Position numbers and translations under genes: made by a program. Source: an uncultured Alphaproteobacteria bacterium (GTDB taxonomy: Bacteria > Pseudomonadota > Alphaproteobacteria > Rs-D84). From it: a DNA stretch of 64,000 bases. Every line of letters starts with the position of its first letter. Within the stretch, counting starts at the first letter, position 1. Positions 4,631-58,922 of this stretch are shown here, piece after piece. Where the stretch lies: NCBI GenBank assembly GCA_944393245.1, contig CALXZM010000004.1, positions 383-64,382 on the forward strand. The letters run 5' to 3'. The notes beneath the pieces were generated by a model that saw only the letters and a program-made list of their open reading frames with translations, had not been told where the DNA came from and did no database searches.

Positions 4631-4707
4631 CGGGGCGTAGCTCAGTCTGGTAGAGTGCTTGCTTTGGGAGCAAGATGTCGAAGGTTCGAATCCTTTCGCC
4701 CCGACCA
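4631..4707 (+). tRNA. tRNA-Pro (anticodon TGG)
   Basis: Cloverleaf with acceptor cggggcg/cgccccg, anticodon loop tTTGGga, T-arm ggttcgaatcc and an encoded CCA. Confidence 0.85.
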
Positions 4708-4856
4708 GAAAATTCAAACCGTCGCAAATGCGGCGGTTTTAATTTTCTGGGTGGCCCGTGCGGATTCAAACGACAAACAGCGGTTTGTCGGGCTTCGAAT
4801 CTTTCACTCGATTTATCGTCAAAAGACGATAAATCTGCGTGTATCATCGTATTTAT

Positions 4857-8983: not shown

Positions 8984-9646
8984 GTGTCCAAGGAAGGGAG
9001 TTTTATGATGCCAAAATCAAAGTCTGAAAAAACAAAATCTGTAAAATCACGTCGCACGTCGCGCGCGGTGAATTATAATCCAATCGCGTCGTCGGTTAAG
9101 CGTTTGTATAACAAAAGTGCACCGTTGTTAATATGCGAAGCGTTGTTATTCGGTGTTGCGGCAATACTGATGGTGATTAAACCTGTTGCGATTTTAACTG
9201 CGCTGACGTTGGTGATTGGGGTGGCTTTGGTATTGTTTGGATTGTATCGCACAATCGCAGGTTTCGTTGTTTCGCGTGACATGGGCGGCGGATGGTTCGA
9301 TGTAGTGTTCGGATTGCTGACGGTTGTGTTGGGTGTGTTGTTCTGTATATATCCGGTGGGATCGGTCGCGGCGTTGGTATACATATTTGTAATACTATTT
9401 GCATTGCGCGCGATTTTGTCACTGATATTTTCGATAAATATGATACGCGCGCGGTTTGGCAATTATTGGTTTGATTTGATTATGTCGATTATATTGATTG
9501 CGCTGGCGGTGTTTTTACTGTTCTATCCGATGGCGGGTGCGGTTGTTATGGTTTATTATTTGGCGATAACTTTATTGCTGTATGCCGCGGCCGACGTATA
9601 TATGTATGTTGAAATATTACGTTTAAAGAAATTAGTTACAGATTAA
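8984..9646 (+). CDS. HdeD/DUF308-like multi-pass membrane protein
   Basis: Basic N-terminal tail followed by repeated paired-TM segments with the G..L..G spacing typical of DUF308. Confidence 0.45.
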   Translation: MSKEGSFMMPKSKSEKTKSVKSRRTSRAVNYNPIASSVKRLYNKSAPLLICEALLFGVAAILMVIKPVAILTALTLVIGVALVLFGLYRTIAGFVVSRDMGGGWFDVVFGLLTVVLGVLFCIYPVGSVAALVYIFVILFALRAILSLIFSINMIRARFGNYWFDLIMSIILIALAVFLLFYPMAGAVVMVYYLAITLLLYAAADVYMYVEILRLKKLVTD

Positions 9647-9651
9647 TAAAA

Positions 9652-9680
9652 ATCGCCCGTTTGGGCGATTTTTATTTTAA
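9652..9680 (+). terminator. Rho-independent terminator
   Basis: aatcgcccgtttgggcgatttttatttt. Confidence 0.5.
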
Positions 9681-9759
9681 ATATGTTTTGGCGCATATGC
9701 CTTATATAACAGTTTGATTGCTTGCATTTTGCCGAATGATGTTATAATATATGCCTGAT

Positions 9760-9836
9760 GCGCCCTTAGCCCAGCTGGATAGAGCATCGGATTTCTAATC
9801 CGCAGGTCGCAGGTTCGAATCCTGCAGGGCGCGCCA
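9760..9836 (+). tRNA. tRNA-Arg (anticodon TCT)
   Basis: gcgccct/agggcgc acceptor, anticodon loop ttTCTaa, T-arm caggttcgaatcctg and an encoded CCA. The framework is close to bacterial tRNA-Arg. Confidence 0.85.
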
Positions 9837-10156
9837 GAATAAAAATATCACCCAACGGGTGATTTTTTTATTATGATGCAAGCCCCAGGATTTGAACCTG
9901 CGAAAAAGCAGTTCGAACCGCCGCAAAAAGGCGGACGGCAGTACGCCGGTTTGCGTTTAGCAAATTTTGCCAGGTGGCGCAGCAATCCTGCAGGGCGCGC
10001 CAGAATAAAAATATCACCCAACGGGTGATTTTTTTATTATGATGCAAGCCCCAGGATTTGAACCTGCGAAAAAGCAGTTCGAACCGCCGCAAAAAGGCGG
10101 ACGGCAGTACGCCGGTTTGCGTTTAGCAAATTTTGCCAGGTGGCGCAGCAATCCTG
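9837..10156 (+). repeat. Tandem direct repeat: one 166-bp unit plus a 154-bp identical partial second unit. Each unit begins with a terminator hairpin and ends with the last 19 nt of tRNA-Arg (aatcctgcagggcgcgcca).
   Basis: Copy 1 is 9837-10002 and copy 2 is 10003-10156. They are identical base for base until the divergence at 10157. Hairpin atcacccaacgggtgatttttttatt. Confidence 0.85.
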
Positions 10157-10275
10157 GTAGGGCAATGAATAATGTTATACGCCGTGGGCGTTTTTTTATT
10201 GGGAAATCATACCTGGGGCATTTGTGGTGGGGCATATGTTATAATGGTCATGTATAAAACAAAGGGAGTTTTTTA

Positions 10276-10746
10276 ATGAAAAAATTTTGGTTGTTTATTT
10301 TGGCGGTTGTAATATCTTTTTTGCCGGGTATTATCGGGATGCTGTTTTCGCCAGATGGGGCGTCTGATTTATGGTATAATGCCCTGAATAAGCCATTGTT
10401 AATGCCAGATGGTTGGGTCTTTGCCGTTGTGTGGCCGATTTTATATTTTATTTTAGGCATTGCGTTGTATTTAATCATTGTTGATAAGACGCGTTACAGC
10501 AAGGCGATGTCATATGGCGTGTTTGCAATACATATGGTATTAAATGCATTGTGGTCTTATTTGTTCTTTGGCGCGAATTTGATTGGGGCGGCGTTAATTG
10601 TTTTAATTGCGTTGATTGCCGTTGTTATATGGATGATGCGGGTGTTTTATCCCATCAGCAGATCTGCGTATTACCTGGTCTGGCCGTATTTAATTTGGTT
10701 GGTATTTGCATTGTATTTAAATGGAACTGTTTTATTCTTGAATTAA
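10276..10746 (+). CDS. tspO: TspO/MBR family tryptophan-rich sensory protein
   Basis: WYNALNKPLLMPDGWVFAVVWPILYFILGIALY...LWSYLFFG... is the classic five-TM TspO signature. Confidence 0.8.
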   Translation: MKKFWLFILAVVISFLPGIIGMLFSPDGASDLWYNALNKPLLMPDGWVFAVVWPILYFILGIALYLIIVDKTRYSKAMSYGVFAIHMVLNALWSYLFFGANLIGAALIVLIALIAVVIWMMRVFYPISRSAYYLVWPYLIWLVFALYLNGTVLFLN

Positions 10747-11133: not shown

Positions 11134-12057
11134 ATGTTTAATGTTAATCAAATTTTTGCTGCACCGTTGGCCGGAATTACAGATAAACCATTTCGGCGTA
11201 TTGTTCGTATGTTTTCGCCGAATACACCAATGTATACGGAAATGATTTCATGTCATTCGTTGGTGGGGGCGCATAAAAATTGTCTGCGTAATTTTGACCG
11301 TTATGATGATGAAGGTAACATAGGGACCCAGATTTTTGGTGCAAATGCACAATTAATGGCGGATGCGGCGCGAATTTTACAGGATGCCGGCGCCACATGG
11401 ATTGATATAAATATGGGTTGCCCAGTACCAAAGGTTGCCACACGCAGTGGGGCGGGGGCAAACCTGATGCGTGACCATAAATTGGCTGAAAAAATAATGC
11501 GGGCGGTGGTTCGTGCCGTACAGATTCCAGTATCGATAAAAACGCGCCTGGGGTGGGATGATGCCAATCGTGACTGGGCTGATTTAATTAGGATTGCTGC
11601 TGATTGCGGGGTACGATTTGCCGCATTGCATGGGCGCACGCGGGCGCAATTGTATACGGGGGTGTCTGATTTGCCGCGGTTGGTAAATTCGCCGATACCC
11701 ATTATTGGCAATGGGGATATAAAAACGTCGGCCGATGTTCGGCGTGTCGCGGATTTGGGGTACAGTGGTGCAATGATTGGGCGTGCCATGTTGGGGCGAC
11801 CATGGATTTTTGGGGTGCTGAATGGAATTTGTGGGGTGCCTGAAAATGTTGGGGTGGTTGTATTGCGACACCTGCAATATATGGTGGAATATTATGGCGA
11901 AAAAAACACTGTCCCCATGTTTCGCAAGCATGCGGCCTGGTATTCCGCGGGTATGCCTAATTCTGCTGAATTCAGAATTCGTGTCAATGGTATTACGGAT
12001 GCTGGTGAATTGGTGGATGAAATTTGTAAATTTTGGGGTTGCGAAGTAAAAGTATAG
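11134..12057 (+). CDS. tRNA-dihydrouridine synthase (Dus family)
   Basis: AAPLAGITDKPFRRIVRMFSP...IDINMGCPVPKV...VSIKTRLGWDD. Confidence 0.8.
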   Translation: MFNVNQIFAAPLAGITDKPFRRIVRMFSPNTPMYTEMISCHSLVGAHKNCLRNFDRYDDEGNIGTQIFGANAQLMADAARILQDAGATWIDINMGCPVPKVATRSGAGANLMRDHKLAEKIMRAVVRAVQIPVSIKTRLGWDDANRDWADLIRIAADCGVRFAALHGRTRAQLYTGVSDLPRLVNSPIPIIGNGDIKTSADVRRVADLGYSGAMIGRAMLGRPWIFGVLNGICGVPENVGVVVLRHLQYMVEYYGEKNTVPMFRKHAAWYSAGMPNSAEFRIRVNGITDAGELVDEICKFWGCEVKV

Positions 12058-44722: not shown

Positions 44723-45931
44723 TTAGTTGCCCAACATATAACCACACCTGTTAACAAGGTTTTGACGCAGGTTTTGTAAACGATTAATCAGTTCATCGTA
44801 TTGATTTGTAGTTGGATTTTCAGGCGTTGTGTACGGGTTTACCGGTTGATTTGTTGATGCGACGACACAGGTGTTACCACTGCGTGTATAACCAGATATA
44901 CAACCCCAATTCCAACAATAATTGGTGGTATCAGGTATGTATTCAATATATGCATCTATGCCCTTGGCGGGTTCGCCAGATTCTGTACAATATCGTGCGA
45001 CACATTCAGGTTGCCAAAAATCGTCTTTCCATAATCCGTTCCACCACCCCGCGGCGGTGTCTGACCAAGTGGATTCGTCTTTCTTTTTCCCCTGTAAACA
45101 TTGACGGACACCCGGTGCGGCGATAACATTAGTGCCGTTTTGTTCCACGCCACAGAACATATAATCACCAATATTTGCCTGGCGTTCGCCTTTATTAAAT
45201 ACCGTATTACAACATGTGAAAGCACCAGTCACAGGATCGTATAAGCAATCTGTTTCTGAAAATACTTGTGAACCAGATATTAAACCGCCAATAATTGCAC
45301 CAGCGGCCGCCCCGATACCAGTGCCGATTACTGGGAATATACTGCCAACCGATGCACCCGCGATTGCACCACTGGCCGCACCACCAGCCACATTCCAACC
45401 GCTGTGTTCGCCCTGGCCGGCGGTTGATGCATATATACCGGCCGCGCCCCCGGCAATGCCCAATGCGGCCCCCACTTTTGCGCCGCGTGACATACTGGAC
45501 CAGTTTGTTCGGGGCCTAGGCGCGGTAGTTGACGGTGCCGACGTTGTTGGCCCAGACGGAGCTGGGGCAGGACCTGGTGTCGGTGTCGACGTTGTTGGTC
45601 CAGACGGAGCTGGGGCGGGACCTGGTGTCGGTGTTGACGTTGTTGGTCCAGACGGAGCTGGGGCAGGACCTGGTGTCGGTGTCGACGTTGTTGTCCCAGA
45701 TGGAGTTGGGGCAGGACCTGGTGTCGGTGCCGATGGTGTTGGTGCAGGTACGGGAACCGCATTTGGCATACCTGTAACGTTTATTAAACGTCCTGTATTT
45801 GCGTCACGCCAACGGTGATCAGAAATGCTCTGTACTGGGATTACGCCAGGGTCATTCCACATTAATGCGTTTGCACCAGAATTAACAAACATCAATGACA
45901 GTATGAAAAAAAATATAACTGTTTTACGCAT
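44723..45931 (-). CDS. Family A secreted protein: signal peptide, 16-aa Pro/Thr-rich tandem repeats, glycine-zipper segment, FSETDC...CCN / CWNWGC module
   Basis: MRKTVIFFFILSLMFVNSGANA; (TPTPGPAPAPSGPTTS)x about 4; GAALGIAGGAAGIYAS...IGTGIGAAAGAIIGGLISGSQVFSETDCLYDPVTGAFTCCN. Paralogous to 1-2156. Confidence 0.6.
   Translation of the reverse strand: MRKTVIFFFILSLMFVNSGANALMWNDPGVIPVQSISDHRWRDANTGRLINVTGMPNAVPVPAPTPSAPTPGPAPTPSGTTTSTPTPGPAPAPSGPTTSTPTPGPAPAPSGPTTSTPTPGPAPAPSGPTTSAPSTTAPRPRTNWSSMSRGAKVGAALGIAGGAAGIYASTAGQGEHSGWNVAGGAASGAIAGASVGSIFPVIGTGIGAAAGAIIGGLISGSQVFSETDCLYDPVTGAFTCCNTVFNKGERQANIGDYMFCGVEQNGTNVIAAPGVRQCLQGKKKDESTWSDTAAGWWNGLWKDDFWQPECVARYCTESGEPAKGIDAYIEYIPDTTNYCWNWGCISGYTRSGNTCVVASTNQPVNPYTTPENPTTNQYDELINRLQNLRQNLVNRCGYMLGN
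45520..45740. repeat. Four tandem 48-bp coding repeats (the Pro/Thr/Gly-rich unit) inside the Family A gene
   Basis: gacgttgttggtccagacggagctggggcaggacctggtgtcggtgtc repeated with single-base variants. Confidence 0.7.
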
Positions 45932-51085: not shown

Positions 51086-51162
51086 CGGGGCGTAGCTCAG
51101 CCTGGTAGAGTACTTGCATGGGGTGCAAGGGGTCGCAGGTTCGATTCCTGTCGCCCCGACCA
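51086..51162 (+). tRNA. tRNA-Pro (anticodon GGG)
   Basis: Acceptor cggggcg/cgccccg, anticodon loop atGGGgt, T-arm caggttcgattcctg, encoded CCA. Confidence 0.85.
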
Positions 51163-51582
51163 TAAATAAAAAAGAAACCGCCATCGTGCGGTTTGTTTTT
51201 TATTTACAGTGGGCATAACAGAAGCGACCTTGCATACGCAGTATGCCCAGGTTCGACAACGAGTAGATTTGACCAAGCGATGTATTTTCATCGCGCAGTC
51301 AAATCGTTACGAATGCCCCACAGCCGCAACGATAGTCTAAATCGTTGCGCGCGAGGGATTCCTGTCGCCCCGACCATAAACAAACAGAAAACCGCAGTCG
51401 CGGTTTTTATTTTTGTTTACAGTGGGCATAACGGAAATTGGCCCTGCATTACTGAAAATAATGCAGTGGTTCGACAATGAGTAGATTTGACAAGAGTAAC
51501 GCAGTCAAATCGTTACGAATGCCCCACAGCCGCAACGATAGTCTAAATCGTTGCGCGCGAGGGATTCCTGACGCCCCGACCA
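51163..51582 (+). repeat. Two tandem diverged repeat units of about 210 bp (51163-51376 and 51377-51582). Each starts with a terminator hairpin and ends with the last ~20 nt of tRNA-Pro(GGG) (gattcctgtcgccccgacca).
   Basis: Shared blocks: tttacagtgggcataac, ggttcgacaaYgagtagatttgac, and a near-identical 3' stretch of about 80 nt containing the perfect hairpin cgcaacgatagtctaaatcgttgcg. The middle section has diverged. Confidence 0.8.
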
Positions 51583-58797: not shown

Positions 58798-58922
58798 TGT
58801 GCTTCCCCATTGAAATAATGAAATTGCCGAATGATTATACACAGTTTTTTTATAAACGCAATACACTTTTTAATCATAATAAAAAAATCCGCCGTTGGGC
58901 GGATTTTTGATATGTATACGCA

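Follow-up and report, generated by a model that had tools for sequence, protein, structure and literature searches.

Integrases that target tRNA genes are known to cross over in the T loop, and a T-loop crossover class of tRNA-gene integration is said to have been distinguished by Williams in 2002. Plant mitochondrial t-elements, mascRNA and viral 3′ tRNA-like structures are processing or stability signals, and Y-like RNAs, which adjoin rsr, mimic the D/T elbow internally and are not tRNA-specific. Rickettsia palindromic elements, REPINs and MITEs are present as many dispersed, near-identical copies with fixed ends. In the Islander definition, islands in tRNA genes are recognized by a regenerated target and a displaced fragment (PMC4383910). 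CIMEs are integrase-less, att-bounded elements that build accretion arrays (PMC5704250), and the tandem ssrA islands of Dehalococcoides form arrays at the tmRNA 3′ end (PMC3146451).

The repeat described here lies directly behind a tRNA-Arg(TCT) gene in a 64-kb stretch of DNA, which is called the window and means the whole stretch that was analysed (Table 1). Like islands bounded by attL and attR, it shows a direct repeat of the tRNA 3′ end (9818-9836, 9984-10002 and a degenerate 10150-10169) past an intact tRNA, identity from the T loop on, a decaying distal copy, and tandem arrays. Unlike such islands, it has an element body of 100-130 nt that is non-coding and carries no integrase, its repeat includes the host terminator, and no free attP-type copies were found among phage, plasmid and IMG/VR sequences; in addition, the body has an antisense tRNA end and a covarying fold, and the core occurs behind many tRNAs with its flanking modules matched to each of them. 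The absence of an integrase, att-type repeats at a tRNA or tmRNA 3′ end, and arrays that may have grown by successive events are also shared with CIMEs and the ssrA islands, but CIMEs are decayed ICEs or IMEs that span kilobases and bear cargo genes, and apart from the att core they show no fit to the particular tRNA they target. Membership in the CIME class would be compatible with the structure and with an empty/occupied pair of sites (L003 vs L007, below), no recombinase having been identified.

Table 1. Positions of the tRNA, terminators, element copies and proposed helices in the array behind tRNA-Arg(TCT)
Feature	Position	Strand	Remarks
tRNA-Arg(TCT), CCA encoded	9760-9836	+	ARAGORN; Rfam tRNA 64.8 bits
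Last 19 nt of the tRNA, first copy of the repeated 3′ module	9818-9836	+	
Spacer and terminator A, copy 1	9837-9871	+	hairpin 9847-9863, then T run
Element copy 1, complete	9872-10002	+	covariance model R1 146.8 bits, E 6e-38
Copy 1, 5′ anti-tRNA module	9879-9903	+	contains GCCC 9882-9885 and CAGGATT 9886-9892
Copy 1, hairpin H1	9893-9915	+	
Copy 1, ACC paired with GGT	9917-9919 with 9973-9975	+	
Copy 1, P2	9923-9928 with 9965-9970	+	covariation-supported
Copy 1, P3	9930-9933 with 9944-9947	+	covariation-supported
Copy 1, P4	9950-9954 with 9960-9964	+	covariation-supported
Copy 1, isolated pair	G9977-C9983	+	
Copy 1, 3′ module	9984-10002	+	exactly the tRNA's last 19 nt, including discriminator base and CCA
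Spacer and terminator A, copy 2	10003-10037	+	hairpin 10013-10029, then T run
Element copy 2	10038-10169	+	body as in copy 1; R1 130.9 bits
Copy 2, 3′ module, degenerate	10150-10169	+	AATCCTGGTAGGGCAATGAA, without CCA
Terminator B	10170-10201	+	hairpin 10179-10191, T run; older right flank, common to L005 and L001
TspO gene, downstream of terminator B	10276-10746		

The array is surrounded by housekeeping genes (DUF308, TspO, Dus, RodZ and UvrA), and its two tandem units are the only copies of the R1 element in the window. Elsewhere in the window, a diverged two-copy array (Y1 and Y2) is located 3′ of tRNA-Pro(GGG) at 51086-51582, with the structure intact in both copies, and a payload-less degenerate version of the same layout may follow tRNA-Pro(TGG) at 4745-4815.

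The reading favoured here, with even confidence, is that the 166-bp unit is a copy of a small RNA gene that mimics a tRNA end, and that its copy number was changed by recombination between the repeated ends. An array at 9818-10156 with a period of 166, 2.04 copies, 100% matches and a score of 678 was reported by Tandem Repeats Finder, and a repeat search and direct string comparison both gave 100% identity between 9818-9983 and 9984-10149; a perfect 166-nt repeat of this kind is far beyond chance. The earlier note, which had described a perfect tandem duplication abutting the tRNA with a second copy identical until 10156, was right on both points, and its frame (9837-10002 plus 10003-10156) is a rotation of this repeat. 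The 19-mer AATCCTGCAGGGCGCGCCA is found at 9818-9836, within the tRNA, and at 9984-10002, the repeat starting inside the T loop, and the insert between the two 19-mers is 147 nt long and non-coding. The claim that both units end with the last 19 nt of the tRNA holds for the first unit and fails for the second: at this third junction, whose degeneracy had been missed, only AATCCTG (10150-10156) is common with the tRNA end, and the following GTAGGGCAATGAA is a degenerate older copy of that end, next to which stands a different terminator (10179-10191). The intrinsic terminator reported at the start of the unit is present in both copies (9847-9863 and 10013-10029), as hairpins with T runs that are terminator-like on both strands.

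Since the two copies are identical, the change of copy number in the window is recent. The same identity could arise if a loop in the assembly graph had been traversed twice, in which case the element would be real and single-copy here, an explanation that is compatible with the other readings and quite improbable in itself. The 166-bp period exceeds many short reads, and the source is probably a metagenome assembly, as the closest DusB from a species-representative genome is only 83% identical. However, such repeats are usually collapsed and not expanded by short-read assemblers, slightly diverged two-copy arrays are found in independent assemblies (L004, L012 and L023), and the second array of the window has two diverged copies.

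The unit is built around copies of the tRNA end. An imperfect palindrome (I2) with 47-nt arms (9807-9853 and 9857-9903, 79% complementary) extends from the 3′ half of the tRNA across the terminator to ~30 nt into the body; copy 1 of terminator A is its centre, and the tRNA 3′ end is paired in it with the 5′ module. The start of the body, the other point missed by the earlier note, is antisense, in degenerate form, to the T arm, acceptor 3′ strand and CCA of the tRNA (TGATGCAAGCCCC--AGGATTTGAACCTGCGA, where a perfect antisense would read TGGCGCGCCCTGCAGGATTCGAACCTGCGA). On the 3′ side of H1, the sense start of the T arm (GCAGTTCGAACC) is followed by ~75 nt, after which the sense sequence resumes at the end of the T loop and runs to the tRNA 3′ end. 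A coding role for the 51-aa and 72-aa ORFs that span the unit was rejected, for their start ATG is not conserved and indels and differences in helix length are not multiples of three, which bears out the earlier description of the unit as non-coding. A simple promoter scan of 9600-10300 gave no sigma-70-like sites, the upstream region of the tRNA included, and is therefore uninformative. No integrase was seen in or near the unit when the neighbouring genes were inspected, and exact-protein matches to the flanking TspO and DUF308 were absent from other assemblies.

Related loci were collected by a search with the DusB protein (11134-12054), which gave 80 loci in species-representative genomes, all of them gut or rumen alphaproteobacterial MAGs, many assigned to 'Candidatus Enterousia', with a best match of 83% identity. 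The window itself belongs to a gut alphaproteobacterium resembling 'Candidatus Enterousia'. tRNA-Arg(TCT) is located upstream of dusB in most of the 80 loci, in either orientation, and the 147-nt body has blastn matches at 20 of them, always directly 3′ of the tRNA. Occupancy was counted over the 55 loci that have tRNA-Arg(TCT) and enough flank: elements of two sequence families, one or two each, follow the tRNA at 28 loci (one family-1 copy at 11, two family-1 copies at 6, and family 2 at 11), and none follows it at the other 27. Confinement of the unit to this one locus, together with the lack of a transcript, had been named by the earlier note as telling against its view; the unit is not so confined, since family members occupy 28/55 tRNA-Arg(TCT) loci and sit behind other tRNAs as well; the comparison with an empty site in relatives that it had proposed is provided by the 27 loci without an element, and most cleanly by L003 vs L007.

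Two tandem copies are present in L004, L010, L012 and L023 and partially in L008, L009 and L037; those of L004 and L023 have diverged, and arrays of mixed families occur. The downstream 19-mers are copies of the tRNA end of their own species, including the variant AATCCTGCTGGGCGTGCCA in L004 and L012, and the distal 19-mer of L054 differs at 3 positions from its tRNA's own end. The terminator between tRNA and body is species-specific and repeated within a species. In L092 and L045, the CCA of the tRNA leads to the element with no terminator between, and, judged from this arrangement, co-transcription of tRNA and element would be unavoidable. The degenerate junction and terminator B of the window are also found in L005 and L001, and the L005 element lacks CCA with its core intact. 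Family 2, whose core is GGATGAGAACC..GGTTCGAGCCG..GGCGAAAGGGGCCCAT..ATGGGAATTTAC, is found in more distant relatives at the same site and also ends with the tRNA's 19-mer.

The same core is found behind other tRNAs. A scan of metagenomes with a 20-nt core pattern gave 22 loci, 5 of which are chance matches in coding DNA, and at most of the others a ~75-nt core lies closely 3′ of a tRNA on the same strand, the further contexts being Lys(CTT), Glu(CTC), His(GTG), Arg(CCT) and Ser(GGA). Several core sites can be present in one genome (e.g., three on one 590-kb contig), and in L085, L087, L088 and L096 the core follows another cassette-like sequence and not a detectable tRNA. In the tRNA-linked elements, the 5′ module is antisense-like to the T arm and acceptor strand of their own tRNA, the 3′ module is the last 14-20 nt of that tRNA, CCA-ending and exact in most copies, and a terminator is usually present 3′ of the element. 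The 3′ module agrees with its own tRNA at 15-17/17 positions and with other tRNAs at 5-13/17, and the 5′ module has its best or tied-best score against the antisense of its own tRNA in 5/6 cases. The constant part begins exactly at a T-loop position (GTTCGAACC, independent of the local T loop) and stops two or three nt short of the 3′ strand of the T stem; the element's sense half thus resembles in sequence a tRNA 3′ half in which the core stands in for the T loop. Paralogues at different tRNAs of one genome have diverged and orthologues at one tRNA are similar across species, which indicates long residence and argues against active hopping.

The fold of the element was examined on a MAFFT alignment (A1) of 29 elements from six tRNA contexts. 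The proposed helices are a rod between the 5′ and 3′ modules, H1, ACC/GGU, P2 (GCAAAA/UUUUGC), P3 (GGCG/CGCC), P4 (a variable hairpin) and an isolated G-C pair. In A1, 90.8% of cells are paired, as against 25-42% with the partners slid by 1-3 columns, both sides have changed in 21 pairs, and the observed values were reached in 0/500 shuffles; RNAalifold independently gives H1, ACC/GGU, P2, P3 and P4 on this alignment. The covariance model R1 recovered 43 copies among the fetched loci, in which 92.4% of cells are paired (28-44% when slid) and 24 pairs are double-changed. This 43-copy alignment is one fitted to R1, and no correction for phylogeny enters the covariation controls; covariation is shown more independently by the slid-partner control and by the MAFFT alignment. 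The double changes include C-G to U-A in P2, G-C to A-U in P3 and up to five pair types in P4, where the tandem paralogues of L023 also show compensatory differences. A G-C/A-U covarying pair stands at alignment columns 117/125, the rest of the all-vs-all listing of column pairs being too noisy. The element is old and conserved, with compensatory base changes, so that the very recent event of the earlier note is upheld for the change in copy number and not for the element itself. Its GC hairpin (ccgcc/ggcgg) is likewise found when the single sequence is folded, but the comparative data favour GCAAAA/UUUUGC and GGCG/CGCC in its place.

Conservation differs among the parts. S5/S3 pairing is kept at 82-90%, and acceptor-like pairing at ~78% of cells family-wide: it amounts to 4/7 bp in the window and is absent in L092, CCA is missing in copy 2 and L005, and the acceptor-like part of the 5′ module decays freely. 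This free decay is expected if the array is a by-product of replication errors, in which a sense-antisense-sense triplication of the tRNA 3′ region arose when the replicating strand switched templates at palindromes of the terminator and T arm, and the resulting junk array expanded and contracted. Quasipalindromic template-switch products and inverted triplications indeed have the same sense-antisense-sense layout, with the hairpins of terminator and T arm at its centre here. One unbroken imperfect palindrome (I2) runs from the tRNA end through the terminator into the 5′ module, another is made by that module together with the next sense copy, and the possible layout without payload behind tRNA-Pro(TGG) (4745-4815) would be a product of this kind. 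Such an origin may explain the scaffold of the element but not its conserved, covarying core, for it leaves unexplained the conservation of ~75 nt across six tRNA contexts, the compensatory changes in P2, P3 and P4, and the intact structure of diverged tandem paralogues (L023, and Y1 and Y2 of the window), and as an account of the whole it is most improbable.

The strand of the putative RNA can be judged from the same alignments. A tRNA-like gene or pseudogene that runs convergently on the minus strand could share the bidirectional terminator with tRNA-Arg and take the reverse complement of the 19-mer as the 5′ strand of its acceptor. The terminator is terminator-like on both strands and the rod is symmetric, so that either strand can form it; moreover, for L097 and L100 the ARAGORN output includes an opposite-strand tRNA-Lys(ttt), and on the minus strand of the window there are a hairpin resembling a T arm and a 5-bp/7-nt arm whose loop contains UUU. 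These calls, however, concern 2/43 copies and are of poor structure, the Rfam tRNA and tmRNA models do not match the element, and the putative anticodon arm clashes with the covarying P2 and P3. The minus strand of 9873-10002 folds no better than its shuffles (z -1.6), as against a modest z of -2.9 for the plus strand, and the ratio of G.U to A.C (74:23) also favours the plus strand, which makes a minus-strand gene very improbable. A TC-to-GA variant at the base of H1 recurs in family 2 as well as, within family 1, behind several tRNAs, His and Lys among them; it replaces two Watson-Crick pairs with tandem G.A pairs and gives no better DNA palindrome, and therefore makes sense for an RNA and not for a palindrome in DNA.

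In flank comparisons the element behaves like a cassette. The terminator plus body of the window is 95-97% identical to those of L008/L004, whereas dusB, tspO and the DUF308 gene are only 75-79% identical. L005 has a DUF308 gene 92% identical to that of the window and the same right flank (degenerate junction and terminator B), but its terminator A differs and its terminator plus body is just 78% identical, and L001 combines the window-type right flank with the body variant of L005. As far as these sequences tell, the window would be an L008/L004-type allele on a window/L001/L005-type flank, with its right junction within or just before AATCCTG. L003 and L007 have downstream flanks of ~95% identity with an element in L007 and none in L003, and the difference between them is the body and a 65-bp duplicate of the 19-mer and terminator. 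The pattern fits a recombinational allele swap with the tRNA and the 3′ part of the element, both conserved, as anchors; it fits site-specific insertion equally well, and mobile DNA is suited at least as well by the empty/occupied pair and the mismatch between element and flank identity.

The main rival is a miniature integrative cassette acting as DNA, a non-autonomous unit of tRNA end, terminator and body that a recombinase encoded elsewhere inserts at the T loop, thereby restoring the 3′ end and displacing the old one; repeated insertion would yield tandem and mixed arrays, and the fold would serve the recombinase as substrate or be that of an RNA which the element encodes. In every case the T loop is where identity with the tRNA sets in, and the right junction of the window shares exactly AATCCTG, a typical overlap length for tyrosine recombinases. 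The last tRNA end on the right, with terminator B, resembles an original that was displaced and is decaying, a regenerated target with a displaced fragment is the exact definition of islands in tRNA genes (PMC4383910), and an empty and an occupied site lie in near-identical flanks in L003 vs L007. The three mismatches of the distal 19-mer of L054 to its tRNA, element similarity that does not track flank similarity, arrays that mix families, and the patchy distribution are also as expected of a cassette. On the other hand, no integrase or transposase was found in or beside any array examined, no copies were found on phages, plasmids or viral contigs, and a 166-bp circle is a poor substrate for recombination. 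The duplicated segment includes a host-specific terminator (65 bp duplicated in L007), so that an incoming element would have to bring the recipient's own terminator; furthermore, classical att recombination has no use for the 5′ antisense module or for its match to each tRNA, paralogues within a genome are old and diverged, and the compensatory changes and G.U bias point to RNA. Overall, such a cassette is possible but rather unlikely. The small mobile module suggested by the earlier note survives as this rival only, and its attL/attR scar of one tiny insertion is not supported as the simple account, given the lack of an integrase, the conserved fold, the tandem arrays elsewhere and the core behind at least six tRNAs; its other suggestion, an sRNA gene hitch-hiking on the tRNA terminator, comes close to the explanation favoured here.

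Families 1, 2 and 3 gave nothing beyond terminator-like noise in Rfam 15 at E up to 10, the whole 64-kb window at the gathering threshold gave 7 tRNAs and nothing else, and the Rfam tRNA and tmRNA models had no match to the element. ARAGORN called nothing on the unit with default or lowered thresholds except for junk at ps50, and gave junk calls only in its intron, mitochondrial and tmRNA modes. Collections of phages, plasmids and viral contigs (IMG/VR) contained no similar sequences, and no description of such elements was found in the literature searched, which is absence of evidence only. Several identities were considered and rejected. First, a hammerhead in family 2 (GGAUGAG...CGAAAG) lacks the core invariants by eye, and a kink-turn at the tandem G.A pairs lacks the canonical stem that is required. 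Second, H1 is no integron attC, as its arms TTTGAAC and GTTCGAA do not fit the RYYYAAC...GTTRRRY boxes by eye and the ends are tRNA-specific; no intI was seen among the genes neighbouring the array. Third, a permuted or two-piece tmRNA, considered for the CCA-ending piece together with the GGTTCGAC motif of family 3, scores at best 11.8 bits in Rfam against a gathering threshold of 47. A type III antitoxin repeat like ToxI is contradicted by the downstream gene, which is TspO here and differs elsewhere, and by the many single copies, and a MITE, REPIN or Rickettsia palindromic element by the presence of just two tandem copies in the window and by copies elsewhere that are tRNA-linked with ends that vary by tRNA. 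The element does share with those repeats that it is short, hairpin-forming, non-coding and patchy among alphaproteobacterial relatives, but unlike them it occurs behind tRNAs alone, with ends remade to suit each one, and no further copies are present in the 64 kb.

According to the small RNA gene reading, the element is a modular non-coding RNA gene on the strand of the tRNA, positioned after the tRNA and, at most loci, after a terminator. Its parts would be arranged as the 5′ antisense module, H1, the ~75-nt core, the copy of the tRNA 3′ end and, at most loci, a copy of the terminator, with the core folding as a three-way junction (P2, P3 and P4) in place of the T loop. Transcription would run in the direction of the tRNA, either as read-through from its promoter or started at a weak promoter belonging to the element. 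The 5′ and 3′ modules may then pair into the rod, the 3′ strand of which, with its NCCA tail, is that of the tRNA, and on which the core would be displayed as a functional payload; the ends of the RNA would be set by the tRNA's own termination and by tRNA-end processing. The tandem in the window could have arisen through homologous recombination in two ways, either by unequal exchange or by import of an L008/L004-type two-copy allele, in which case the right crossover would lie in the conserved 3′ portion of the element and join the import to the old degenerate junction and terminator B of the recipient. The anatomy, conservation, covariation, tRNA-matched modules and patchy distribution are observed, and it is transcription, strand, processing, function and the route of recombination that we infer from them.

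By analogy, the element probably works more like a tRNA-like end structure than like an att repeat. With t-elements, mascRNA and the viral tRNA-like structures it would share a helix resembling the acceptor and T stem and a CCA end on a non-tRNA RNA, which tRNA enzymes could recognize; what sets it apart is a 3′ strand copied exactly from the adjacent tRNA, an antisense partner strand in decay, a large conserved payload where the T loop would stand, and the formation of arrays. The bacterial Y-RNA-like YrlA is similar in being a modular small RNA with a tRNA-like domain and another functional domain, but RNAs of the YrlA type are without a copied tRNA 3′ end. Several findings stand against an RNA gene: the unit shows no promoter-like site, an intrinsic terminator separates tRNA and element at most loci, about half of the related species have no element at tRNA-Arg(TCT), and acceptor-like pairing is poorly kept. 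Copy 2 and the L005 element, with intact cores but no CCA, indicate that an exact tRNA-like 3′ end is not strictly required.

If the elements are indeed RNA genes, they would constitute an unrecognized class of small RNAs in gut alphaproteobacteria, each pairing a copy of the adjacent tRNA's 3′ end with an antisense strand and presenting one of several conserved payload domains. Such RNAs would stand singly or in mixed arrays behind many tRNA genes and represent a new way to build RNAs on a tRNA scaffold. They would also be a source of error for island callers that use displaced tRNA fragments, because the arrays mimic att repeats without any island. If the elements are cassettes, they would be the smallest site-specific integrative cassettes known and would imply a recombinase acting in trans on tRNA T loops. 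Under either reading, the family is directly testable, as the covariance model R1 and dozens of loci exist. A more far-reaching idea, not directly supported and clearly unlikely, is that the arrays are a programmable tRNA-specific RNA system, with an anti-tRNA guide and a spare CCA end mounted on a protein-recruiting core. Such RNAs might possibly act as a splint or spare part for mending tRNAs cut in the T loop or acceptor end, as a decoy to divert toxins or enzymes whose target is the acceptor end of the tRNA in question, or, by analogy with guide-RNA-directed recombinases, as a guide that steers cassette insertion behind the matching tRNA.

L001 adds a hint, drawn from its gene arrangement, that may favour the RNA gene: its element is located behind a promoter-less 3′ tRNA fragment, the intact tRNA being 3 kb off, past valS, and this element, a single case, is the most decayed full-length copy (71 bits with R1).

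The window carries a second tRNA-linked array at 51086-51582, at tRNA-Pro(GGG), where terminators alternate with two elements, Y1 and Y2. Both belong to a third element family (GGTTCGACAAYGAGTAG..CGTTACGAATGCCCCACAG..CGAGGGATTCC) and have diverged from each other, and the differences between their hairpins are compensatory. The array was not detected by TRF, and its elements had no match in Rfam. Downstream of tRNA-Pro(TGG), the flank opens with a terminator; next come a stretch resembling an antisense T arm (GCGGATTCAAAC) and a hairpin (GACAAAC..GTTTGTC), and then the T arm recurs in sense orientation as a degenerate copy (TGTCGGGCTTCGAATCTTTC). Match scores are weak (10-12), and this flank may be a decayed form of the tRNA-linked element scaffold, or one lacking its payload core.

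Proline tRNA genes of the window and the features 3′ of them
Feature	Position	Remarks
tRNA-Pro(TGG)	4631-4707	3′ flank of interest, 4708-4815
tRNA-Pro(GGG)	51086-51162	order 3′ of tRNA: terminator, Y1, terminator, Y2
Element Y1	about 51206-51376	3′ end is the last 20 nt of tRNA-Pro(GGG)
Element Y2	about 51419-51582	3′ end is the same 20 nt of tRNA-Pro(GGG), one mismatch

Families are mixed in arrays 3′ of tRNA-Ser and tRNA-His at other loci (L085, L101, L086, L094, L102), in which an element of family 1, the type found at tRNA-Arg(TCT) in the window, comes first; the family-3-like element (GGTTCGCWTACGAGTAA..) behind it carries a degenerate tRNA end of its own. In L087, L088, and L096, the family-1 core is preceded, at a distance of about 100-190 nt, by a sequence that contains the motif AAATTCCCTGTAAAnnCCCTGT and has the 3′ end ..GTAGAAT..CCGCCA and then a terminator. 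ARAGORN found no tRNA where this sequence precedes the family-1 elements at these three loci, and the sequence possibly represents a fourth element family. An additional conserved hairpin, TCCGYTTKCGCTGnCGCTACAGCGAGAT, is placed directly 3′ of CCA and ahead of the terminator, at both tRNA and element, in L084, L089, and L095 (tRNA-Glu) and in L024 (tRNA-Arg).

Among the related loci found via DusB (L001-L080), tRNA-Arg(TCT) with its element array occurs in either orientation relative to dusB, depending on the species. Its distance to dusB is about equal in both orientations (e.g., L004, plus; L010, minus). This arrangement suggests repeated inversion or rearrangement of the block. In L001 (1763-5160), valS comes after an intact tRNA-Arg(TCT), and 3 kb downstream, ahead of tspO, a 3′ fragment of tRNA-Arg(TCT) beginning at the anticodon loop has a terminator and then a decayed element behind it. 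The layout looks like that left by an insertion into this tRNA at its anticodon-loop site, or by a rearrangement there.

GC skew over the window (1-64000) is strongly positive to about 52 kb, with cumulative skew climbing steadily, and flat to slightly negative thereafter; this may mark a skew switch at around 52-54 kb, in the vicinity of the tRNA-Pro(GGG) array. A tandem repeat at 45533-45742 (CGGTGTCGACGTTGTTGGCCCAGACGGAGCTGGGGCAGGACCTGGTGT; 48 bp period, 4.4 copies, 91% identical) may lie within a coding region because its period is a multiple of three. A 27-nt minus-strand match (58873-58899, 93%) to the terminator-A hairpin and T run of the 166-bp tRNA-Arg(TCT) unit is probably a separate terminator with a similar stem.
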